The translations under genes were made by a program, and so were the position numbers. Positions 17,117-56,961 of a stretch of DNA of 64,000 bases are shown one piece after another. The notes beneath the pieces are model-generated. The model ran no database searches. It saw nothing but the letters and a program-made list of their open reading frames with translations, and was not told the origin of the DNA. The DNA comes from an uncultured Bacilli bacterium (lineage in GTDB: Bacteria > Bacillota_I > Bacilli_A > RF39 > UBA660): positions 6,567-70,566 of the forward strand of contig CANRCZ010000002.1 of the NCBI GenBank assembly GCA_947629265.1, written 5' to 3'. Numbering within the stretch: position 1 is the first letter of the stretch; every line of letters starts with the position of its first letter.

Positions 17117-17150
17117 TAGTGTTCTTTTTAAATTGAACACTATTTTTTTT
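17117..17150. terminator. bidirectional rho-independent terminator between P1 and HTH-B
   Basis: ATAGTGTTC tttttaaattg GAACACTAT followed by a T8 run. Confidence 0.6.
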
Positions 17151-17355
17151 CTTTTAAAATTATTTCAATATTACATGCTTCACATATTTTTATAAAGTCA
17201 CTGTAATATATTCTATTTATACCTTGTTCTATATCTCTTAGCCAACCGATTGATTTATTTAATTTTTTAGCAAGTTCAGCTTGTTTAAAATTACCAGCTT
17301 GTCTTATAAACTTTACTGTTTCGCCTGTTTTATATTCGTTTCCTTTTATTTCCAT
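17140..17355 (-). CDS. XRE-family HTH transcriptional regulator (cassette B)
   Basis: 71-aa HTH protein (FKQAELAKKLNKSIGWLRDIEQG). Confidence 0.5.
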   Translation of the reverse strand: MEIKGNEYKTGETVKFIRQAGNFKQAELAKKLNKSIGWLRDIEQGINRIYYSDFIKICEACNIEIILKEKK

Positions 17356-17424: not shown

Positions 17425-17495
17425 ATTACGGTTGACAACCGTAATATAGCATGTTATAATCTAAATAATAACGGTGGTCAACCGTACTTTATAAT
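17425..17495 (+). promoter_or_regulatory. two palindromic operators overlapping consensus promoters upstream of P2
   Basis: ATTACGGTTG-A-CAACCGTAAT (17425-45) has perfect 10-bp arms. It embeds TTGACA (17432-37), then a 17-nt spacer and TATAAT (17455-60). A second, related palindrome ACGGTGGTCAACCGT (17471-85) abuts TATAAT (17490-95). AGGAG SD. Confidence 0.6.
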
Positions 17496-17518: not shown

Positions 17519-18349
17519 ATGAAATTAATTAAAAATTTATTTAAACAAAAACTTGGTATTGCTTTTGGATTGCTAATAGGAGTAGTACTTATGGGTGGTG
17601 TAAGTAGAGGACTCGACCAATATACTAGTGCAGGGGTGAGCTATACTGGAAAAGATGGAAAGTTAACAACTGTCAAAGATGCATTAGACAATTTGATAGA
17701 TAAATCATTAACTCAAATTGATACGTTAGAGAAAAAAGTTAGCGAGTTGGAAAAACAAAAATCAAATGTTTATTTAGCAGAGGTCGCAAAACAAGGTGAC
17801 TATGTAGCTTATGATGCTGGTAACTGGAATGGAGCAACTGGTCAACCAGCAAGTCAAGGTGGATTTGGAGGAAATGGAACAGGTAATCGTGGAAATAGTG
17901 TAGCATGTAGAGAAAGTACAGCTCCGTCCTTAAAAGGTTGGAGAGTATTAAAAATTGAAAGTGGCCAAGTTTACCTAGTTCACGCAAGCCAACCTGAATG
18001 TTACTATCATGGATATAATCCAAGTGATAGCCAAACTAAATTAGCTGCAAGGGCACAAAGTACTTACTTAAATGGAACATATGCCGAATCTGCACATGCT
18101 ATGAATAAAGAAGAGGTTGAAGCTATTGACTCATCTAATGACTTACGAGCCACTGGAACACAATATTGGTTGTCCACCATTTTCGGTACTTACAACATAT
18201 ATTACGTGTTCACAGATGGTAGCTTCCGCTCCCTCAGCGGCGACTCGCTTGGCTTCCGGCCGGTTGTAGTTCTTAAATCTACAGTCCTTACCACCGGAAA
18301 AGGATCAGATGGCCTTGGACATAGTAATGCATGGTTAATAACAATTTGA
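17519..18349 (+). CDS. surface protein P2 of the two-Cys C-terminal domain family, with an NNC-codon-rich C-terminal variable segment
   Basis: Same architecture as P1. The segment between YWL and GFRPVVVLK is GC-rich and A-poor with mostly C-ending codons (agc ttc cgc tcc ctc agc ggc gac ...). Confidence 0.6.
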   Translation: MKLIKNLFKQKLGIAFGLLIGVVLMGGVSRGLDQYTSAGVSYTGKDGKLTTVKDALDNLIDKSLTQIDTLEKKVSELEKQKSNVYLAEVAKQGDYVAYDAGNWNGATGQPASQGGFGGNGTGNRGNSVACRESTAPSLKGWRVLKIESGQVYLVHASQPECYYHGYNPSDSQTKLAARAQSTYLNGTYAESAHAMNKEEVEAIDSSNDLRATGTQYWLSTIFGTYNIYYVFTDGSFRSLSGDSLGFRPVVVLKSTVLTTGKGSDGLGHSNAWLITI

Positions 18350-18408
18350 CACAGATCCGCCCAAGCTAGGCTTAAGCCCTAGCGAACTGACAATTATGAG
18401 GTTAAAAT

Positions 18409-18597
18409 ATGTCAATGTTGAATGTGTATAATGAAATAAAGAAAGTTCATCCAGATTTTGTGTTGTTAATAAAATCTGGAACCTTTTATGAAATACTAGA
18501 AAATGACGCATACGTACTCAGTAATATAAGTGGTTATAAAATAGTAAATAAAACAAATTACCAATTATGTGGTTTCCCTAGTAATGTGCTTGCATAA
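18409..18597 (+). pseudogene. mutS: mutS N-terminal fragment (mismatch-binding domain I remnant)
   Basis: The 62-aa ORF KKVHPDFVLLIKSGTFYEILENDAYVLSNISGYKIV...CGFP resembles the MutS N-terminus (HPD..l.fr.GdFYElf..DA). The rest of mutS is absent. Confidence 0.4.
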
Positions 18598-19650: not shown

Positions 19651-19713
19651 ATTAAAAAAACAGTGGACAAAATAAATAAACAAAACAAAAACATATTATT
19701 AATTGGTGATAAA

Positions 19714-20412
19714 ATGTTAAGATTTTTAAAATATCTATTCAAAGATTTCTATATCTTTACAGCTGCTTATTCCAATAATCTCTTTCCATATCCCTTATCC
19801 AAAGAAGAAGAAAAAAAATACGTTGAACTCGCTAAACTAGGTGATAAAGAAGCTAGAAATATCCTTATCGAACATAACCTAAGACTAGTAGCACATATCG
19901 TTAAAAAATACGACCATAACGCATCAATGTCCGACGATTTAATAAGTATCGGAACGATCGGTCTCATCAAAGGTATCGACAGCTATTCCTATAAACATGG
20001 AACTAGAATAACAACTTACTGTGCTAGATGCATCGAAAACGAAATCCTCATGTATTTTAGAAACGATAAAAAAAATAGCAAAAACATAAGCTTAAACGAA
20101 CCGATCGGCTTTGATAAAGAGGGAAACGAAATAACCTTTCTAGATATATTAAAAACACCAAAACCTGACTATGCTCTAGATATCCATAACCAAAATAATT
20201 TGGATCTTTTAAAAGACTATTTTAAAGTATTAAACGATAGAGAAAAAGAAATAATCATCAAAAGATATGGATTAGACGACGAAGAACCCATAACCCAAAA
20301 AGAGATCGCTAAAGTACTTAACATATCTAGAAGCTACGTATCACGAATAGAAAAAAGAGCTTTAACCAAAATGCTCAGAGAGTATATTAAAAATAAAAAT
20401 TATACTGACTAG
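19714..20412 (+). CDS. sigK: sporulation sigma factor, pro-sigma-K-like
   Basis: Pro-sequence ...SNNLFPYPLSKEEEKKYVELAKLGDKEARNILIEHNLRLVAHIVKKY closely matches Bacillus pro-sigma-K (NNAFPQPLS..EEKKYLEL..GD..AR..LIEHNLRLVAHIVKKF). Region 2 (DLISIGTIGLIKGIDSY) and region 4 (ISRSYVSRIEKRAL) are present. ATG at 19714 follows a GGTGA SD. Confidence 0.6.
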   Translation: MLRFLKYLFKDFYIFTAAYSNNLFPYPLSKEEEKKYVELAKLGDKEARNILIEHNLRLVAHIVKKYDHNASMSDDLISIGTIGLIKGIDSYSYKHGTRITTYCARCIENEILMYFRNDKKNSKNISLNEPIGFDKEGNEITFLDILKTPKPDYALDIHNQNNLDLLKDYFKVLNDREKEIIIKRYGLDDEEPITQKEIAKVLNISRSYVSRIEKRALTKMLREYIKNKNYTD

Positions 20413-23794: not shown

Positions 23795-23870
23795 TGCCTC
23801 ATGGCCAAGCGGTAAGGCATCAGACTCTGAATCTGACATTTCGTAGGTTCGAATCCTACTGAGGCAACCA
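23795..23870 (+). tRNA. tRNA-Gln (anticodon CUG)
   Basis: Folded by hand. U1-A72 acceptor pair as in bacterial tRNA-Gln. D-arm AGCCAAGCGGTAAGGCA. Anticodon stem TCAGA/TCTGA with loop CTCTGAA giving CTG. T-arm GGTTCGAATCC. Encoded CCA. Ends 20 nt upstream of gltX. Confidence 0.75.
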
Positions 23871-38173: not shown

Positions 38174-38290
38174 TTAGAAATACGATCATTTTTGAACCTA
38201 GTAATACTAGGTTTTTAATTTATATAAAATAATTATTTAAAAGTTGTTTTAATTAATAAAATTTTTTCCATAATAAAAATGGTGATAGAT

Positions 38291-39223
38291 ATGAAAATAA
38301 GATTAGGATATGTCTCAATCAGTAAGACAGTTGATTTAACACCATCGAGAAATGTTACTTATACTAATTATTTACAAAATCACGATTTGAATAAAATTGA
38401 TGAAATAATTAAATCAAATTTAGAAGCTTTAAGTAAATTACTTGATTATAATATAAAAAACAATATCCATTTTTATCGTTTAACATCCACTCTTATTCCT
38501 TTAGCTACTAAAGATGACGTTGTTTTTGATTATATAAAACCATATAAAAAATTATATGATAAGTGTGCCTTAAAGATTGAAAATAACAATATGCGAGTCG
38601 ATGTCCATCCTAGTGAATATGCTGTATTAAATAGTACTAAAAAAGAGGTAGTGACTAATACATTTGAAATTTTAAAGTACCATTATAATATTTTAGAAGC
38701 CTTAAAAATAAAAAATAAGGTTATTATTTTACATGTTGGTAGTAGTGTTCTTGGTAAACAAAATAGTATCAAAAGGTTTATCAATAATTTTAATAAGTTA
38801 GATGATAATATTAAAAAAACTATCGCTTTAGAAAATGATGATAAAATTTATAACGTTGATGACGTTTTAAATTTATGTAATACTTTATCTATTCCTTTTG
38901 TTTTGGATTATCATCATCATATATGTAATCATGAAAATATCGATATTGATTTTGACAAAGTATTTAGTACTTGGAAAGATATTAATCCTAAAGTTCATTT
39001 TTCTTCACCTAAAAATAAAACAAAAAAGGACTTTAGGAGTCATCATGATTATATTAATAGTGATGATTTTATCGCTTTTTTGAATTTAATTAAAGATTAT
39101 AATTATGATATTGATATTATGATTGAAGCTAAAGCTAAGGATGACGCATTATTTAGATTGGTTAGGGAATTAAAATATAAAACTGATTATAAGTTTATTG
39201 ATGAAACAACTTTTATCATTTGA
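38291..39223 (+). CDS. uvsE: UV DNA damage endonuclease UvdE/UvsE-like
   Basis: N-terminal MKIRLGYVSIS... matches the UvsE start (M.RLGYV). TIM-barrel-like length. ATG at 38291. Confidence 0.45.
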   Translation: MKIRLGYVSISKTVDLTPSRNVTYTNYLQNHDLNKIDEIIKSNLEALSKLLDYNIKNNIHFYRLTSTLIPLATKDDVVFDYIKPYKKLYDKCALKIENNNMRVDVHPSEYAVLNSTKKEVVTNTFEILKYHYNILEALKIKNKVIILHVGSSVLGKQNSIKRFINNFNKLDDNIKKTIALENDDKIYNVDDVLNLCNTLSIPFVLDYHHHICNHENIDIDFDKVFSTWKDINPKVHFSSPKNKTKKDFRSHHDYINSDDFIAFLNLIKDYNYDIDIMIEAKAKDDALFRLVRELKYKTDYKFIDETTFII

Positions 39224-39606: not shown

Positions 39607-40719
39607 ATGTTTAAAGAAAACGGAAGACTTATAATAGGTATATTTATTGGTGTTATTTTAATGGGAGGGGTTAGCTATGCTGTTAATAGTTTTACAAGTG
39701 AAAGTGTGAGTTATACTAGAAACGGTCAAACGATGAATGTAAAACAAGCATTAGATGACCTTATTGTTAAGGTTGATAAAAAGAGTGGTAACTTTAATAT
39801 TGAACTTACAACAGAACAGACAGTGGTAAAAGATAAGACAGTAGATGCAATGACATATAAAACTATGATTAATAGTGTAATCGATAAAATGATATCTGCA
39901 ATGGGATCAACAGCTAAAATGGCAGAATTAACAGCATTAAAAAATGCAACATCGTTAACATGGGCAAGTGAAAATACAACTATTGCGAGTGTAACGAATA
40001 ATACAACCGTAAAAGGTGTTAAAGTAGGAACAACTAGAGTAATAGGGACAACATCTAATGGCAAACAGGTAATAGTACCAGTAAATGTTAAATCAGCATC
40101 ATATTTAGCTGTTCAAGCTAATGTTGGAGACTACGTAGTGTATAATGCCGGAAAATGGGATTCATCAGCTAATAACCCAACTGAATATTATGCATTTGGA
40201 GAATATAAACAGGGACAAAGCAAAAATGCTAGTGTTGAATGGTGTAGCGATGAAAATAATAAAACGACATTAAAAGGTTGGCGTGTATTATCAAAAGATA
40301 CGAATTCTAAAACAGTAACTATAATCCATGCCGGTCAACCGGAATGCTACCGGCATAATACATATACTTATAGTAATGCTGGTGATGAAAGTGTAGCTAG
40401 ATTAAATTTGCGTGCTAAAAATCAATATTTGAATGCAACATATGCACAATCAGCCAGATCAATGACAAAAGCTGATTTAGATACTATTACTCCTGAAAGT
40501 AACACATTACGAAAAACAGGAGAGATGTATTGGTTGGCTAATGCAAACTCTGGTTACTTGTGGTACGTGACAACTTATGGTACTTTTGTCGATGGTTACT
40601 CAGGTACCTACTCATATGGTTTTCGACCTGTCATTGTTCTAAAACAAGGAATGCTAACAACAGGTAAAGTAAAAGATGAATTTAATCAAGATGCTTGGAG
40701 TTTAGTATTACCAAGCTAA
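39607..40719 (+). CDS. surface protein P3 of the two-Cys C-terminal domain family
   Basis: Signal anchor IGIFIGVILMGGVSYA, an inserted ~110-aa middle region, and a C-terminal domain (VGDYVVYNAGKWD...VEWC...LKGWRVL...HAGQPECYRHN...YAQSARSM...YWL...GFRPVIVLK) with an AT-rich, unremarkable variable segment. Confidence 0.6.
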   Translation: MFKENGRLIIGIFIGVILMGGVSYAVNSFTSESVSYTRNGQTMNVKQALDDLIVKVDKKSGNFNIELTTEQTVVKDKTVDAMTYKTMINSVIDKMISAMGSTAKMAELTALKNATSLTWASENTTIASVTNNTTVKGVKVGTTRVIGTTSNGKQVIVPVNVKSASYLAVQANVGDYVVYNAGKWDSSANNPTEYYAFGEYKQGQSKNASVEWCSDENNKTTLKGWRVLSKDTNSKTVTIIHAGQPECYRHNTYTYSNAGDESVARLNLRAKNQYLNATYAQSARSMTKADLDTITPESNTLRKTGEMYWLANANSGYLWYVTTYGTFVDGYSGTYSYGFRPVIVLKQGMLTTGKVKDEFNQDAWSLVLPS

Positions 40720-40861: not shown

Positions 40862-43800
40862 TTGGGGGGGGGTTATTCAACCCTAAAAAATAAGGGATTT
40901 ACGCTAATAGAGCTATTGGCAGTAATCGTTATATTAGCAATCATCGCAACGATAGCAGTGCCAATAGTATTAAACTTAATTGAACAATCAAGAAAAAATG
41001 CTTTTAAGGATAGTGTCTATGGCATTATGGAAGCAGCAGATCTATTCGTAGTATCAGAAAATTATAATCCTAATGATGAAATAGAATTTGTCTGCGATGG
41101 AGCATCTTGTTCTTTAGATGATGGTAGACAACTATCATTTAAAGGAGATGTACCTATAAGTGGAAGCATTCAAATAAAAGATAAAAATACTTTAGCATAT
41201 TTTATAAAAAGTAATGAATATTGTGCTTTAGGTACAAAAGAAAATTTAGATGTAAATAAAGACTGTACCAAACTAGATTATACAAAAGCTGAAATAGAAT
41301 TAAATTTAGTAAAGTCAACAACTAATAGTGTTATAGTATCATTTGAAGCGACAGATATCGAATCAGGTATATCTAATGTAGAGGTTAAATTAAATGATGA
41401 TGTAAAAAATTTTGAATATGAAAAATCACCAATTGTAACCAGTGGTGAAGCTGGTATAGTATTTGATAAACTAGAAAGTAATAAAGAATACACAGTAACA
41501 TTAACTGTAACAAATGGTAACTACTTAACTGAAACTAAAGATTTAAAAGTATCAACTAAAGAAATGAAAAATCCAGATTTAGTATCTATAAATGATCCAA
41601 CAGAAGCTCAAGATGGATATTTTAAAACTCAAACGATAAAAATAACTTTTGATAAAGAAAATGTATCAGAAACAACCAAACATTATGTAAAGACAACTAA
41701 AGAGGGTACAAGTAGTATAGGGGTTACAAAGAGATGTGGTAATATTGATGATACAGATACACCAGATGTTAATAAATGTGAAACTATAAATAGTACAACA
41801 ACATTAGCAGCAAATGTATGGTATGAAATTGATGGTGATTTAGATGTTAAATATGATAAGACAGATAAAACCACAGATAAAAATTTATATGCAATAACAT
41901 ACGATGGAACAAATTATAGTAATTCATCAACATATACCTTATCTAAAATAGATGGAACAAAACCAACATTAGAAATGAAAGAAATAATATCTAAAACAGA
42001 TAAGTTATCAATAGGATATACCGCAACTGATGATGAATCAGGAATAGAAACAAGAACATGTAAATATGGAACAACTCAAAGTAATTTAGATAAAGAAGGA
42101 GCAATAACTGATACCAATTGTGGCCTTACAAAATTAAATCCAAAAACAACATATTACTATAAAATATGTGTAACTGATAAAGTAGGTAATGAAGAGGTAT
42201 GTAAAGAAGGACATACAGATACACAAGCATTTATTAATCCAAAACTAGATTCAGTTATAAGCCCTACAACAGCAGTAAGTGGCTTTGTGAAGACACAAAG
42301 TATAACAGCAACATTTAACAATGCAAATATAGAAAATCCAAATCATTATATAAAAACAACAAGAGAAGGAACAGCAAGCGATAATGTAACAGAAAGTTGT
42401 GGAAGCGAGGACAATCCAGGTAATTGTACAAGTATTACAGGAACAACAACATTAAGTGCAAATACATGGTATAAAGTAAATGGAACTACAATTACGGTAA
42501 AATATGATAAAGCTAGTACAGCAACTGGAGATACTTTAACAGCCATAACCTATGATGGAACAAACTATAGTGGAGTAGCAACATATACATTATCAAAGAT
42601 AGATGCAACAAATCCAACATTTACAATGAATACAGCAACTTCAACAACAAATAGTATAAGTATACCATATACAGCATCAGATAGTGAAACAGGAGTAAAT
42701 GTAACATGTAAATATGGAACAACAAATGGAAACTATGGAACTAGTGGATCATTAGCAAATAATACATGTACATTATCAGGCTTAAAAGCAGGAACAACAT
42801 ATTACTATCAAATGTGTGCTAGTGATGGAGTAGGAAATGAAGCAACATGTCAAACAAGTAGTTTTGCAACTAAATCAATAACAGCACCAAGTATAACATT
42901 AACAACAAATACAGCAGGGACAGTAGCAAATTACGCATTAAAACAAGTGGCAGCAGTAACATTTAATAAAACTAATGTAACAAGCCCAACATATTATATA
43001 AAAACAACGAAAACAGGAACAAGTAGTTTGGGTGTAACACAAAGTTGTGGAAATGGAACTACACCAGGAACTTGTAGTAATGTAACAAGTACAACAACAT
43101 TAAGTGCAAATCTATGGTACAAAGTAAGTGGAAATGTTAATGTAACATATAGCACACCAAGTACAGCAACAGGAACACTATCAGCCATAACATACGATGG
43201 AACAAATTATAGTACAGCAGCAAGTCAAGCTATAAGTATGATAGAGCAATCTGCAACAAGTATATCATTAAATAAAACAAGTGCAACAATAAAAGAAGGA
43301 GAGACAACAACATTAACAGCAACAATATCACCAACTACAACAACAAATAAGAATGTAACGTGGTCGACGAATAATGCTAATGTAGCAACAGTATCAGGAG
43401 GAACAGTAACAGGAAAAGGAGTAGGAACAGCTACGATAACAGCAAAGACAGCAAATAATCAAAGTACAACAGCAACAATAACAGTACAACCCAAAGGTGA
43501 ATTATTATATGGTAAAGTATCTGTTGGAGATTACGTAGCCTATGATGCTGGAAAATGGGGTGCTGCTACTGATATACCAACATATTCAAGTTCCGTGAAA
43601 TTTGGAGGAAATGCAGCAAATACAAATAAAGGAATGAGTGCAAAATGTTATAATTCTACAACATTAAACGGATGGCGTGTACTTAAAAAAGAAAATAATC
43701 AAGTAACAATAGTCCACGCTGGCCAACCCGAATGTCATTTTCATTATTATTCTGAAATGAACGCTATAACTTTATTAAATAACAGAGCAAAACAATACAT

Positions 43801-44134
43801 GGATTCAACATATGCCGAATCAGCTCATGCTATGACTAGAGATGAAGCCAAAGCAATTACTGGTGATGAGCGTAGTACTGATAACGACTTACGAGACATT
43901 GGAGCGTTTTATTGGCTAGCTAGTATTTCTAGCGAGAGTGTCGGCATGGGCTACGATAACCTTTACCTATTTTACGTTAACGGCGCTGGCGGCATCAACG
44001 AATACGGCAATGGCGTCAATGAAGCGTACGGTTTCCGTCCTGTAGTAGTCTTAAAATCTAATGTCTTAACCTCAGGACAAACAACAGATCAATTTGGAAA
44101 TGCTAAATCTTGGACTTTAGTAGGATTAAAATAA
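40862..44134 (+). CDS. giant prepilin-type (class III signal) surface protein P4: pilin N-terminus, three FN3-like repeats, a Big_2 domain and the family two-Cys C-terminal domain
   Basis: KG|FTLIELLAVIVILAIIATIAVP is a canonical type IV prepilin cleavage/N-methylation motif. Three ~215-aa repeats (...TYDGTNYS...YTLSKIDGT...CKYGTT...YYYK.C..D..GNE) follow. Big_2-like segment SISLNKTSATIKEGETTTLTATISP...VTGKGVGTATITAKT. C-terminal domain VGDYVAYDAGKWG...AKCYNS...LNGWRVL...HAGQPECHFHY...YAESAHAM...YWL...GFRPVVVLK with an NNC/AAC-rich variable segment. The track start is a TTG with no SD. The real start is probably the ATG at 40843 after -1 G slippage. Confidence 0.6.
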   Translation: MGGGYSTLKNKGFTLIELLAVIVILAIIATIAVPIVLNLIEQSRKNAFKDSVYGIMEAADLFVVSENYNPNDEIEFVCDGASCSLDDGRQLSFKGDVPISGSIQIKDKNTLAYFIKSNEYCALGTKENLDVNKDCTKLDYTKAEIELNLVKSTTNSVIVSFEATDIESGISNVEVKLNDDVKNFEYEKSPIVTSGEAGIVFDKLESNKEYTVTLTVTNGNYLTETKDLKVSTKEMKNPDLVSINDPTEAQDGYFKTQTIKITFDKENVSETTKHYVKTTKEGTSSIGVTKRCGNIDDTDTPDVNKCETINSTTTLAANVWYEIDGDLDVKYDKTDKTTDKNLYAITYDGTNYSNSSTYTLSKIDGTKPTLEMKEIISKTDKLSIGYTATDDESGIETRTCKYGTTQSNLDKEGAITDTNCGLTKLNPKTTYYYKICVTDKVGNEEVCKEGHTDTQAFINPKLDSVISPTTAVSGFVKTQSITATFNNANIENPNHYIKTTREGTASDNVTESCGSEDNPGNCTSITGTTTLSANTWYKVNGTTITVKYDKASTATGDTLTAITYDGTNYSGVATYTLSKIDATNPTFTMNTATSTTNSISIPYTASDSETGVNVTCKYGTTNGNYGTSGSLANNTCTLSGLKAGTTYYYQMCASDGVGNEATCQTSSFATKSITAPSITLTTNTAGTVANYALKQVAAVTFNKTNVTSPTYYIKTTKTGTSSLGVTQSCGNGTTPGTCSNVTSTTTLSANLWYKVSGNVNVTYSTPSTATGTLSAITYDGTNYSTAASQAISMIEQSATSISLNKTSATIKEGETTTLTATISPTTTTNKNVTWSTNNANVATVSGGTVTGKGVGTATITAKTANNQSTTATITVQPKGELLYGKVSVGDYVAYDAGKWGAATDIPTYSSSVKFGGNAANTNKGMSAKCYNSTTLNGWRVLKKENNQVTIVHAGQPECHFHYYSEMNAITLLNNRAKQYMDSTYAESAHAMTRDEAKAITGDERSTDNDLRDIGAFYWLASISSESVGMGYDNLYLFYVNGAGGINEYGNGVNEAYGFRPVVVLKSNVLTSGQTTDQFGNAKSWTLVGLK
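40864..40872. repeat. poly-G tract (G9) between the SD-linked ATG (40843) and the body of the P4 ORF
   Basis: aggctt GGGGGGGGG ttattc. At G9 the ATG at 40843 terminates after 14 codons (MKEKIRLGGGLFNPKK*). At G8 it reads through as MKEKIRLGGGYSTLKNKG|FTLIELL... Confidence 0.85.
41560..43230 (+). repeat. three tandem ~640-nt intragenic repeats encoding FN3-like modules of P4
   Basis: Recurring DNA and protein blocks (acatacgatggaacaaattatag..., ITYDGTNYS, TLSKIDGT/ATNPT, TCKYGTT, TTYYYK/QMC). Confidence 0.6.
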
Positions 44135-44285
44135 TAACGAAGAAACTCTAAAATTATTTGGGGTTTTTTTGTTTTATATCAAAAATATAAATGTCGAAAA
44201 TTGTCGTACAATTTTTGATACAAATTTTTTCTAAAAAAAAGGAAATGAAAAAGTTTTGTCGTATCATATAAGTAGGGAGGGAAAA

Positions 44286-46301
44286 ATGAAAAGGTACGCA
44301 TTTGAAAAACAAGATGGTATAAAAGATTGTGGTGTAGCATGTTTAAAAATGATTATAAGATATCATAAAGGCTACGTTGGTACAGAACTATTAAGAGATA
44401 TGACTAAAACCGACAAAAATGGTGTAACGGCTTTCCACTTAGTAAATACATTAAATAAACTAGGTTTTAAATCTAGAGGTTTGAAAGTATCAATTGATAA
44501 TATCAAAACCTTACCAGCCATAGCTCATGTCACTATCGATAACACTTATAATCATTATGTCGTTATATACAATATCAATAAACAAAAAGAAGAAATCCTA
44601 ATAGCGGATCCAGCTAAAAGAATAATGAAAATGTCTTTTCAAAAGTTTAATGAAATATATAATAACATTATTATCGAAGCTATTCCATATAAAAAAATAC
44701 CCGTTATCAAAGATTATTCAATCTCAAAATTCATTCTAAATTTAATAAAAAATGAGAAAAAAATAATATGTATAATTCTAATAATGTCACTAATTACAAC
44801 GGTATTATCGATTATATCATCTTTCTATGTACAGCTATTACTAAATAATTTGAATCGAAAAATAATTATTCTCTTCTTTTTCATGAGTATATTGTTACTT
44901 ATATTAGAATATATAAAAAACAATATCTTAATTAAATTAGATAGTAAGCTTGATCGTAAACTGACGATGAGTACCTACCAAAACATTATAAACCTCCCTT
45001 ATCAATATTTTAAGAACCGAACAACCGGAGAAATAATAACTCGCTTAAATGACTTAAAAAGTGTCAAAAATACAATAAATAGAGTAATTATTACGATCTT
45101 TATCGATGGTATCCTAGTCTTTTTATCAAGTATCATTTTAATCAAAATAAATGTAGTGCTATTCTTAATAGCAGTAACGATTTTGATTATGTATATACTG
45201 ATAACAATCATATTTAATAATAAATTTAAATACGAAATAAACGATATAAAAGAAAAAAACGAATATCTAAATAGTAACCTAATCGAAAGTATCGATGGTA
45301 TTGAAACAATAAAAGGACTAAACCTCCAACCAGAATTTTTAAATAAAGTTGAAAAAATATATACAGATTATATGAAAGAAAGTATAACCCTAGATAAAAA
45401 AATAAATATTCAATTTACCTTAAAAGAAATGGTCAACACTATCGGTAACATGATTATTCTATGTGTAGGTGTATGGTTTATTCAAAAGAAGATAATGGAT
45501 TTCGGTAGTCTATTCACTTTCCTGACTTTAGTAGCTTACTTTTTAAATCCAATTAGAAATATTATCGACTTAAATATCGATATCACTGAATCAATCAGTG
45601 CTATAAAAAGAATCTTAGAACTAGATTACTACCAAAATGATCCTGGTAAAATAAACATTGATGAAATAAACAATATCGAAATAAAAAAACTATCTTATTC
45701 CTATAACGACTACAATTATATATTAAAAGATATCAATTTAAAAATATCTAAAGGTGAACATATTATGGTAGTTGGTACAAGTGGTAGTGGTAAATCTAGT
45801 TTACTAAAAATAATTAATAATTACTATGAAACCAAAAAACAAGTTTATATAAATGATAACGAAATAAACCAATTAAAAAATATACCAATTAATTACATAT
45901 CCCAAAACGAAATTTTATTTACTGACACTTTATTCAATAATTTAAAACTTAATCGTCAAATAGATAAAAACACTATTGAAAAAATATACAAAGAGTACGA
46001 AATCGATAAAATAATTCCTTTAAACGGATTAATCGAAGAAAATGGTTTTAACATATCCGGTGGTGAAAAACAAAGAATTGTACTCGCTAGAACATTATTA
46101 AATCAACCTAAGTTTTTAATTATCGACGAAGCCTTAAATCAAGTAGATATCAACATGGAAAGAAAAATATTAAAACAAATACTAAAAATCAAAAATTTGA
46201 CTTTAATATACGTATCACATCGTAATAACAACGTCGATCTATTTGATAGAGTTATTAAAATCGAAGACGGGTTCTTAAAAGAAGATATCAGAAAGGAATG
46301 A
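44286..46301 (+). CDS. peptidase-C39 domain ABC exporter (bacteriocin/double-glycine peptide processing transporter)
   Basis: N-terminal C39 domain with the catalytic Cys in DCGVACLKMII. Six TM segments. C-terminal ABC ATPase (GTSGSGKSS, LSGGEKQRIVLAR, FLIIDEA). ATG at 44286 follows GGGAGGG. Confidence 0.75.
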   Translation: MKRYAFEKQDGIKDCGVACLKMIIRYHKGYVGTELLRDMTKTDKNGVTAFHLVNTLNKLGFKSRGLKVSIDNIKTLPAIAHVTIDNTYNHYVVIYNINKQKEEILIADPAKRIMKMSFQKFNEIYNNIIIEAIPYKKIPVIKDYSISKFILNLIKNEKKIICIILIMSLITTVLSIISSFYVQLLLNNLNRKIIILFFFMSILLLILEYIKNNILIKLDSKLDRKLTMSTYQNIINLPYQYFKNRTTGEIITRLNDLKSVKNTINRVIITIFIDGILVFLSSIILIKINVVLFLIAVTILIMYILITIIFNNKFKYEINDIKEKNEYLNSNLIESIDGIETIKGLNLQPEFLNKVEKIYTDYMKESITLDKKINIQFTLKEMVNTIGNMIILCVGVWFIQKKIMDFGSLFTFLTLVAYFLNPIRNIIDLNIDITESISAIKRILELDYYQNDPGKINIDEINNIEIKKLSYSYNDYNYILKDINLKISKGEHIMVVGTSGSGKSSLLKIINNYYETKKQVYINDNEINQLKNIPINYISQNEILFTDTLFNNLKLNRQIDKNTIEKIYKEYEIDKIIPLNGLIEENGFNISGGEKQRIVLARTLLNQPKFLIIDEALNQVDINMERKILKQILKIKNLTLIYVSHRNNNVDLFDRVIKIEDGFLKEDIRKE

Positions 46302-49116: not shown

Positions 49117-49980
49117 ATGAAATTGATTAAAAATTTATTGAAACAAAAACTAGGTGTGACCTTTGGATTAGTAGTTGGTGTCATGTTGATGGGTGGTGTA
49201 AGTAAAGGACTTGACCAATATAATAGTACTGGGGTCAGCTATACTAAAAGTGATGGAACAGTAGTTTCGGTAAAAGATGCTTTAGATGAATTGATAACTA
49301 AATCGTCTAAAGTTGATACATTAGAAAAACAGGTAGCTGATTATAAAAAAGTGATTTTTAACTTATATGATAAAGTAGCTGTAGGAGATTACGTAGCGTA
49401 TGATGCTGGAACATGGGATTCATCAGTACCAGATAAACCAATAGAACAAGGAAAGTTCGGTGGATATAGTCAAGGACAAAGTAAAAATTCTAGTGTAGAA
49501 TGGTGTTGGAAAAGTGATTATAAAACAACATTAAACGGATGGCGTGTACTTAAAAAAGATGGTGGAAAAGTTTACCTAGTTCACGCTGGCCAACCTGAAT
49601 GTTATTATCATGCGGGTAGTAGATATATTGACGCCAGTGAAAAAGCCTTAAACGAAAGAGCACAAAGTACTTACTTAAATACAACATATGCAGACTCAGC
49701 ACATGCTATGAATTATCAAGAAGCATATGATATTGATAAAACTGAACCTATGGTTGCTACCAATAATGATTTACAAAAAACTGGAGATTATTATTATCTG
49801 GCTGCTGACTTTACTGGCAGCATCTGGAGCGTGGAAAATGACGGCAGCATGTGGTCCAACAACATCGCCTCGCGAGGTTTTCGTCCCGTCATCGTCCTAA
49901 AAGCAAGCGTTCAAACTACAGGTAAAGTACACGATGAATTTGGACAAGAAGCTTGGAACTTAATATTACCACCTCAATAA
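49117..49980 (+). CDS. surface protein P5 of the two-Cys C-terminal domain family, with an NNC-codon-rich variable segment
   Basis: Signal anchor FGLVVGVMLMGGVSKG. Conserved SVSYTKSDGTVVSVKDALDELI. C-terminal domain VGDYVAYDAGTWD...VEWC...LNGWRVL...HAGQPECYYHA...YADSAHAMN...YYL...GFRPVIVLK. The variable segment 49800-49905 is rich in gac/ggc/agc/atc/tcc/aac/gcc/gtc codons. Confidence 0.6.
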   Translation: MKLIKNLLKQKLGVTFGLVVGVMLMGGVSKGLDQYNSTGVSYTKSDGTVVSVKDALDELITKSSKVDTLEKQVADYKKVIFNLYDKVAVGDYVAYDAGTWDSSVPDKPIEQGKFGGYSQGQSKNSSVEWCWKSDYKTTLNGWRVLKKDGGKVYLVHAGQPECYYHAGSRYIDASEKALNERAQSTYLNTTYADSAHAMNYQEAYDIDKTEPMVATNNDLQKTGDYYYLAADFTGSIWSVENDGSMWSNNIASRGFRPVIVLKASVQTTGKVHDEFGQEAWNLILPPQ

Positions 49981-50307: not shown

Positions 50308-51492
50308 GTGCATTTAAAATCAGTTATAAAAATTCGTATAACCGGTAAAAATACAAATCGCTTTCTAAGAAAAATTATAAACAAAAAAATCGAAATACTA
50401 GAAATAAACGAAATAGACTATAAAACCATCGACATAAAAATATACGATAAAGATTACGACGAAATAATAAAACTAAAAACTATCTACGAGGTAGAAATAA
50501 TCGACACCTATGGATATAAAAAACTAAAAAAAATAATCAAACTAAATAAATACCTAATCATCTTTATCATCATCGGTTTTATTATTTTATTATTTTTAAC
50601 CAATACCATCTTCGAGGTCGAGGTCATCCATAACGATAAAGAAATAAGAAAAATTCTAACCCAAGAATTAGATAAATACGGTATCAAGAAATTTAACATG
50701 GTTAAAAATTACCATCAAATCGAAAAAATAAAAGAAAATATTTTAAAAGATTATAAAGATAAAATAGAATGGTTAGAAATCGAAAGAATTGGAACTAAAT
50801 ACGTAGTTAGAGTCGAAGAACGTATACTAAATTCCAAAAAAGAAAAAACCGAACTAAGACATGTCGTCGCTAAAAAGAATGCCATCATCAAAGACGTCTA
50901 TGCCGAAAGTGGTGACGTCTTAAAAAGAAAAAACGACTACGTAAAAAAAGGTGACATAATTATAAGTGGGACAATATCCCTAAACGAAGATGTTAAATCA
51001 TCATTACCCGCTAAAGGAGTCGTATATGGTGAGGTGTGGTATAACGTCAAAGTTGAAATGCCATACTATAACTATGAAAAAATAAAAACCGGTAAAAAAA
51101 ATAACGTTATCACCTTAAAAATACTTAATCACCGGTTTGAACTTTTCAACTTTCATAAATATAAAACCAAAGATATTAAATCTAAAACCCTACTTAAAAG
51201 TAACCTAATTCCTATCAGTTTAAATAAAGAATTCCAAGAAGAAACCGTCGTAAGTGAAAAAGTTTATCTAAAAGAAGAAGCTATATCACAGACTGAAAAA
51301 AAAGCTAAAGAAGAAATTCAAAAAAAATTAGATGAAAAAGAAAAAATAATTAGTATAAAAAAATTGCATGTTAGCGAAAATAATAGTAAAATAATAGTAG
51401 ATTACTTTGTAACTGTATATAAAAATATAACAGACTATAAAAGTATCAGTATGGAGGAATTAGATGTACGAAATAGTGAACCAAACCAATGA
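50308..51492 (+). CDS. yqfD: sporulation protein YqfD-like
   Basis: 394 aa with a central TM segment. Synteny with yqfC and ybeY. Confidence 0.45.
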   Translation: MHLKSVIKIRITGKNTNRFLRKIINKKIEILEINEIDYKTIDIKIYDKDYDEIIKLKTIYEVEIIDTYGYKKLKKIIKLNKYLIIFIIIGFIILLFLTNTIFEVEVIHNDKEIRKILTQELDKYGIKKFNMVKNYHQIEKIKENILKDYKDKIEWLEIERIGTKYVVRVEERILNSKKEKTELRHVVAKKNAIIKDVYAESGDVLKRKNDYVKKGDIIISGTISLNEDVKSSLPAKGVVYGEVWYNVKVEMPYYNYEKIKTGKKNNVITLKILNHRFELFNFHKYKTKDIKSKTLLKSNLIPISLNKEFQEETVVSEKVYLKEEAISQTEKKAKEEIQKKLDEKEKIISIKKLHVSENNSKIIVDYFVTVYKNITDYKSISMEELDVRNSEPNQ

Positions 51493-56885: not shown

Positions 56886-56961
56886 GCTAGAATAGCTCAG
56901 TCGGTAGAGCAACTGTCTCGTAATCAGTAGGTCGCGGGTTCGATTCCTGTTTCTAGCACCA
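56886..56961 (+). tRNA. tRNA-Thr (anticodon CGU)
   Basis: Folded by hand. Acceptor GCTAGAA/TTCTAGC. D-arm GCTCAGTCGGTAGAGC. Anticodon loop CTCGTAA giving CGT. T-arm GCGGGTTCGATTCCTGT. Encoded CCA. Confidence 0.75.

Follow-up and report, generated by a model that had tools for sequence, protein, structure and literature searches.

C-ending codon islands in the lectin-like loops of a surface adhesin family from an AT-rich gut Bacillota: a possible footprint of diversity-generating retroelements

The DNA analyzed here is a 64-kb stretch (the window) of the 97,280-bp contig CANRCZ010000002.1, from an uncultured Bacilli bacterium. It has a mean GC content of 27.5% and encodes five paralogues of one protein family, P1 to P5, recognized from ORF calls, translations and tblastn with P2. 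P1 (16240..17094, + strand), P2 (17519..18349, +; 276 aa) and P5 (49117..49980, +; 287 aa), the last with the same architecture as P2 and 53% identical to it, consist of an N-terminal membrane helix acting as anchor, a coiled-coil stalk and a C-terminal domain of ~190 aa, which in the ORF and AlphaFold2 model of P2 is C-type-lectin-like. P3 (39607..40719, +) has a Big_2 domain in addition. P4 (40862..44134, +) is a type IV pilin-like protein of 1090 aa, in which Pfam and tblastn with P2 delineate an N-terminal methylation motif with a hydrophobic helix (PF07963 N_methyl, E 2.1e-7, residues 9-32, KGFTLIELLAVIVILAII...), three internal repeats of 648 nt (41768-43223), fn3 and Big_2 domains and, at its tip, a C-terminal domain that resembles a CTLD (C-type lectin-like domain). 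The Big_2 match agrees with the first-pass annotation of this stretch, which was made from the letters alone. Relatives are few: at E<=0.001 only 45 were found for P2 in 5.8 billion proteins, all of them from gut-type metagenome-assembled genomes (MAGs) in NCBI, ENA or Logan. The family's relatives are labelled uncultured Bacilli, Erysipelotrichaceae or Clostridia and come from gut and rumen MAGs. The best explanation for P1-P5 is a set of paralogous adhesins, membrane-anchored or, for P4, pilin-like, at the surface of a spore-forming gut Bacillota with an AT-rich genome (a MAG).

When GC content was profiled in 60-nt sliding windows over the 64 kb (mean 27.5%, sd 7.6%), the three highest values were found at 18205-18264 (65%), 43981-44040 (60%) and 49814-49873 (58%). 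These positions coincide with the segments between a conserved YWL and an invariant GFRPV in P2, P4 and P5, respectively. Two other high-GC 60-nt windows are explained by tRNA genes (23795-23867 and 56886-56958), the sole Rfam matches in the stretch. The P2 island spans 18188..18265 (+), with a core at 18218-18263 of only 7% A, and contains AGC TTC CGC TCC CTC AGC GGC GAC TCG CTT GGC TTC CGG CCG. That of P4 (43931..44020, +) has 18 C-ending codons out of 30, many of them GGC, and retains AAC, AAT and TAC. In P5 (49804..49875, +) 13 of 24 codons end in C, and the island contains AAC AAC ATC GCC TCG. The GC-rich loops and the C-ending codons of P2, P4 and P5 had both been pointed out in the first-pass annotation, and both were borne out. 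The P2 segment, placed there at 18180-18350, had to be narrowed to 18188-18265, as 18266-18350 is an ordinary C-terminal tail.

The enrichment is codon-phased and specific to C. Third positions in + strand ORFs of the window (16,941 codons) are C in 11.6% and G in 8.0% of cases, and the third-position C:G:T:A counts are 14:4:6:2 in the P2 island, 18:2:8:2 in P4 and 13:5:4:2 in P5. The paralogues P1 and P3, which have no island, serve as internal controls: their equivalent segments give 3:3:16:4 (P1, 16927-17004, where codons end in T) and 7:3:12:4 (P3, 40555-40632), in line with the earlier remark that ordinary AT-rich codons occupy this position. The shift in the islands is thus a replacement of T3 by C3, with C far above G. 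All 15-codon windows with at least nine C-ending codons fall inside the three islands, and the longest run of such codons in the window, eight in a row, lies in the P2 core at 18221-18244. Codons that are rare among the 16,941, namely CGG (6), CTC (16), CGC (17) and CCG (21), are all present inside 14 codons of P2, and GGC, which represents 8% of glycine codons overall, is frequent among those of the P4 island. We consider the existence of these C-ending-codon islands confirmed and far beyond chance.

Chance, a chimeric assembly or local translational codon selection were weighed as trivial causes, since a few other genes of the window reach up to 8/15 C-ending codons and the contigs derive from metagenome assemblies. 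However, it is negligibly probable that the top three GC windows would coincide by chance with one homologous segment of 25-30 codons in three paralogues. The same islands were also assembled independently in different samples, both for the relatives P0002 and P0046, which differ by one SNP elsewhere, and for P0004, identical in two samples. Codon selection is contradicted by the identity of the codons, because CGG, CCG, CTC and GGC are not favoured by translational selection in low-GC Firmicutes and are the rarest ones here, and Rfam shows no RNA gene at the islands. These causes are barely conceivable. Horizontal acquisition of whole genes from a GC-rich donor, the alternative envisaged at the outset with G3 as frequent as C3, was ruled out: whole-gene GC of the family is only 32-39%, so that the island composition is not a whole-gene effect, the islands measure just 50-90 nt and C3 greatly exceeds G3. 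A deamination-type process (A-to-G / T-to-C) was also ruled out, because it would give similar G3 and C3 and leave A3 in place.

DNA of several close family members was obtained from short ENA contigs (1-4 kb). Of these, P0002 (L002), P0004 (L027, L028) and P0032 (L030) carry islands, whereas P0020, P0040, P0036, P0017, P0043 and P0044 lack them, as do P1 and P3. The codons of the invariant FRP are TTC CGG CCG/CCC in island-bearing genes and TTT CGT CCA in island-free ones. GC-rich synonymous codons at residues that do not vary indicate a templated or compositional origin rather than a by-product of amino-acid selection. The more distant relatives (33 loci from genomes and metagenomes, at most 45% identical) have ordinary loop codons and no islands.

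P2, P0002 and P0032 represent the same locus in three MAGs. Conservation extends into the downstream flanks, with 92% identity over 220 nt in the case of P0032. Their islands align as xGT AGC xTC xGC xxC xxC xxC ... GGx TTC CGx CCG GTx. Differences between P2 and P0002 are distributed 9/3/3 over codon positions 1/2/3 per 12 island codons, whereas elsewhere position 3 predominates. Within this 12-codon patch, the third base was retained in 6/7, 7/8 and 5/7 of the amino-acid-changing codons in the three comparisons among P2, P0002 and P0032, compared to ~45% elsewhere in the gene (Fisher p 0.06, 0.017 and 0.09; the three tests are not independent). The claim that positions 1 and 2 are free and C3 is fixed therefore holds for P2 against its orthologues. 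This divergence has the pattern expected from AAC-to-NNC adenine mutagenesis, as seen in BPP-1. For P4 and P5 the codon signature was assessed as a static C3 excess.

The C-terminal domain of P1-P5 had no Pfam match at E up to 0.01 (PF07603 and PF03781 included) and no NCBIfam match, and the family profile had no sequence match in the PDB. An AlphaFold2 model of P2, built from an alignment of 45 sequences, reached a mean pLDDT of 85.7, with values >95 in the C-terminal domain. Its top PDB match in Foldseek was the C-terminal domain of Legionella Lcl (8q4e, DUF1566-type), with classical C-type lectins ranking next. Treponema denticola TvpA (2Y3C) was also among the structural matches, and the N-terminal domain of the Thomasclavelia ramosa IgA peptidase (9QA6), described as an enlarged CTLD core (PMC12237041), was among the best. 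According to the model, the P2-family domain is a CTLD core fold, the usual scaffold of targets of diversity-generating retroelements (DGRs). The lectin/FGE-like scaffold guessed initially is thus supported at the level of fold (P2 model and Foldseek), but no sequence model matches it. The variable stretch lies at the 3' end of the ORF inside this C-type-lectin-like fold, as in DGR targets, among which CLec and DUF1566 folds dominate (PMC11661182). The model and the alignments are best explained by a C-type-lectin-like family without a prior name, in which the presumed ligand-binding loop before the invariant GFRPV strand is hypervariable.

From the island composition, the fold and the position-1/2 divergence of the orthologues we infer a reverse transcriptase (RT) and a template repeat (TR) as the cause, and propose that the islands of P2, P4 and P5 are the footprint, active or relic, of DGR-type rewriting. 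P2 is the most convincing case. The proposal is unproven, and we judge its chances of being correct to be about even. In such a process, a TR rich in AAC, AGC and ANC codons would be reverse-transcribed with errors at adenines, and the mutagenized cDNA would replace the 3' part of the target gene, giving a variable region (VR) with NNC codons in which the C at third positions is kept and even the residues that do not vary are encoded by GC-rich synonyms. The TR expected for 18188-18265 would read roughly AGT AGC ATC AGC AAC AAC AGC AGC GAC TCG ... TTCCGGCCGG. At the 3' edge of the island lies an A-free GC stretch, GGCTTCCGGCCGG, where an element resembling the initiation of mutagenic homing (IMH) site would sit. 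Rewriting of the loop would be most likely in P2 and is less clear in P4 and P5, and the cassette would no longer exist or lie beyond the 64 kb. A relic or inherited footprint is a distinct, though minority, possibility, while a DGR currently active in this genome appears unlikely. Among ~35 further family members known as protein only, P0118 and P0148 (from a MAG with a 73,636-bp contig) have an Asn-rich loop (GSINNNGYNFDSW / GSINNNGYNFDSWGFRPV), which may correspond to a near-unmutated AAC-type variable region or a TR-like state.

Genuine DGRs of AT-rich genomes provide a control for this proposal. In the crAss-like phages cr56_1 (NC_055890) and LMMB (MT006214), with 28-32% GC, no 60-nt window of the 13-kb locus is richer in GC than the VR, a situation like that of the islands here, and one which indicates that VRs are conspicuous as GC peaks when the genome is AT-rich. 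This control, the codon signature, the P2-orthologue pattern and the fold all favour the DGR interpretation made in the first-pass annotation. The expected fold, position and codon signature are present, no TR or RT was found where searched, and the test for variability was negative with low power.

Several observations weigh against DGR rewriting. A DGR-type RT is usually accompanied by Avd and typically located near a target. Motif regex, Brt tblastn and phmmer --max detected no RT in the 64-kb window, and motif regex and Brt searches detected none in the 33 related loci from genomes and metagenomes. An A-tolerant sliding scan for a TR matched just A-rich low-complexity sequence in the window and returned orthologous VRs alone in all 45 fetched loci, and a generic repeat search of the window gave paralogue similarity only and no TR. 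The related loci searched for RT and TR total ~0.6 Mb. That neither element lies within the 64 kb had already been stated and was confirmed. A degenerate TR-only pattern from the P2/P0002 consensus had no match in GTDB-representative genomes or viral contigs, and the {X,A} patterns of the P4 and P5 islands had none in viral contigs; these negatives are weak evidence, since the collections searched contain neither the window genome, with the other 33 kb of its contig, nor close relatives of it (the best family match is 45% identical). No relatives of the family were found in IMG/VR or GenBank phages, and a viral or phage origin was rejected for this reason.

The islands themselves add further difficulties. 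Those of P2, P4 and P5 cannot be aligned to one another, and at the GFRP codons their third bases differ, so one TR cannot serve them. The islands of P0002 and P0004 from one MAG are likewise unrelated (42% identity by hand count). A shared TR was therefore rejected by codon-by-codon comparison, both for the set of P2, P4 and P5 and for P0002 with P0004. If DGR rewriting did occur, there would have to be several TRs, or P4 and P5 would be older relics. A chromosomal DGR with several TRs or cassettes acting in trans on three or more VRs that are dispersed and non-identical, including that of the P4 pilin-like tip, is decidedly unlikely. Adenine content also distinguishes the islands. The low A content claimed for all three applies to the P2 core; the P4 and P5 islands have 25-26% A (26% in P4), which is below the 40% of the genome but no lower than the 19-23% of the equivalent P1 and P3 segments. 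In the crAss-like phages the gain in GC corresponds to a loss of adenine, a situation comparable only to the P2 core and not to P4 or P5. Phage VR codons end mostly in T, whereas the islands here end in C. The phage TR is found ~150-270 nt downstream of the VR and adjoins the RT, while here neither was found.

These same features could point to a diversification process that is targeted, templated or codon-phased without being a canonical DGR, such as gene conversion without an RT from donor cassettes, or a multi-TR DGR-like system acting in trans. Three unrelated islands in one genome with no adjacent cassette would suit such a process, as would C-ending codons in place of the T-ending ones of bona fide DGRs in AT-rich genomes. 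However, tblastn found no silent cassettes or partial copies in the 64 kb, and no recombinase is evident beside the genes. Positive evidence for such machinery is lacking, and the known chemistry of DGRs already explains the AAC-to-NNC signature. We give this process only a slim chance.

Variation among strains is a further point against DGR rewriting. The first-pass annotation had proposed to look for variation confined to the loops, and near-identical pairs taken from separate samples or sources showed no loop differences, including the island-bearing P2, P0002 and P0004. The pairs compared were P2 in L001, P0002/P0046, P0004 in two samples and eight pairs of cluster members. They are nearly clonal, so the test has low power, although they do differ outside the loop, including a swapped N-terminal module. 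The comparison lends no support to ongoing diversification. For P4, no strain-level variants could be retrieved, because P4 is absent from the protein database and matches were swamped by Big_2 proteins. Loop length also differs among family members by indels, which DGRs do not produce.

Such a picture could also arise without a retroelement, by ordinary diversifying selection together with mosaic recombination or allele replacement, in which case the islands would be short imports from unsampled alleles of other codon composition. Mosaicism is evident within the family. In P0032 the N-terminal half is like that of P3 and the C-terminal half like that of P2 (L030 versus window 39744-40545 and 17795-18569), and P0036 and P0143 are identical apart from completely different N-terminal 45 residues, an exchange of the whole module. 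At the P2 locus, the alleles P2 and P0032 are just 44% identical as proteins between conserved flanks, compared to the 92% of the flank. Every member, island-free ones included, has a hypervariable loop that also differs in length. The absence of an RT near any of the 33 related loci and the lack of loop variation in near-identical strains also agree with recombination. However, there is no known GC-rich donor, as the ~80 relatives recovered all come from genomes of 25-36% GC and have ordinary loop codons. In addition, a GC-rich import predicts similar G3 and C3 and arbitrary borders, whereas the islands have C3 far above G3, are codon-phased and occupy one structural position in three paralogues. 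Recombination also leaves unexplained the conservation of third bases across amino-acid-changing codons. We therefore regard this explanation as possible but rather doubtful.

A hairpin downstream of P2 had been likened to the cruciform element of DGRs. The GC-rich hairpin does exist (18365..18383, +), beyond the P2 stop codon and ~100 nt past the island, but it is weak (-4.6 kcal/mol, z -0.9) and misplaced for this function. As 31/200 shuffled sequences fold equally well, it is not significant, and it counts against DGR rewriting rather than for it. The copy downstream of P0032 (L030 1395-1431, corresponding to window 18356-18392) is more stable (-10.5 kcal/mol, z -3.3), the P2 copy being degenerate. 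The element is absent downstream of P0002 and has no T-tract. The interpretation of the hairpin as a DGR cruciform was rejected on grounds of significance and location.

Regarding the genes around P2, a divergent XRE/HTH_3 regulator of 71 aa (17140..17355, -) lies upstream. Between the two, a consensus sigma-70 promoter for P2 (TTGACA-17-TATAAT with TG, 17432-17460) is overlapped by the palindromes TATTACGGTTGACAACCGTAATA and ACGGTGGTCAACCGT. The pairing of an HTH gene with a family gene is seen again in L028, L029, L034 and L035, and this recurrence suggests repressor-controlled expression of individual family members. It also provides an argument for the non-canonical templated process considered above, because an XRE regulator and a strong promoter accompany each family gene, which suggests that the expression of alternative adhesins is controlled. 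Directly downstream of P2, a 62-aa ORF (18409-18597, +) comprises nothing but MutS domain I (PF01624, E 7.7e-10) and is a truncated mutS remnant; an unrelated membrane protein is encoded next. Over 220 nt, the MutS-remnant region shares 92% identity with the P0032 flank of another MAG. Elsewhere in the window, a C39-peptidase ABC exporter (44256-46301) comes after P4, and there are genes for the sporulation protein YqfD (50308-51492), a sigma-70-family factor (19663-20412) and the UV endonuclease UvdE (38279-39223). The latter three indicate that the host is a spore-forming low-GC Bacillota.

Should a DGR be confirmed, it would add a new target family, C-type-lectin-like, without a Pfam or NCBIfam model and structurally closest to the Erysipelotrichaceae IgA-peptidase N-terminal domain, as well as a new host lineage. 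It would also mean that a Gram-positive type IV pilin-like adhesin and XRE-controlled membrane-anchored adhesins are diversified in an uncultured gut lineage. Where a genome is very AT-rich, short GC/C3 islands in lectin-like loops at the C-terminus can serve as markers of DGR targets, among them orphans, relics and those whose cassette is on another contig. On the other hand, if a complete genome turned out to have no RT, it would have to be explained in some new way why third-position C is kept where codons change their amino acid. A more radical, and unlikely, possibility is that NNC-phased loop rewriting might take place without any RT in the genome.

Compared to known systems, the closest resemblance is to DGR variable proteins with a CLec fold, such as Mtd of Bordetella phage, TvpA (2Y3C) and Thermus TaqVP, in which the variable stretch is also C-terminal and precedes a conserved G-F-R strand. 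The runs of NNC codons in the P2 family resemble the BPP-1 VR, where the VR/TR pair has the same AAC-to-NNC pattern. There are differences too. In the CLec-fold proteins the VR ends the protein, whereas here ~28 residues follow GFRPV. The genome analyzed here has three non-homologous islands, no TR, RT or Avd was found, and no variability was seen. Models of FGE-sulfatase and DUF1566 show no similarity to the sequences of P1-P5. The same applies to the Legionella Lcl C-terminal domain (DUF1566; 8Q4E), whose model PF07603 had no match in P1-P5 even at E = 0.01.

The structurally related domain of the T. ramosa IgA peptidase (9QA6; PMC12237041) is accessory to a metallopeptidase and dispensable for IgA cleavage. 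Unlike the P2-family loop, it has not been reported to be hypervariable or a DGR target. The DGR-diversified adhesins on type V pili of gut Bacteroides (bioRxiv 10.1101/2024.11.15.621889) differ from P4, which has a type IV pilin-like N_methyl motif, belongs to another domain family and is found in a Gram-positive, and the DGR cassette demonstrated in Bacteroides is only inferred here. What both systems share is the concept of a ligand-binding domain presented by a pilus tip or adhesin, as P4 is pilin-like and carries its island domain at the end.

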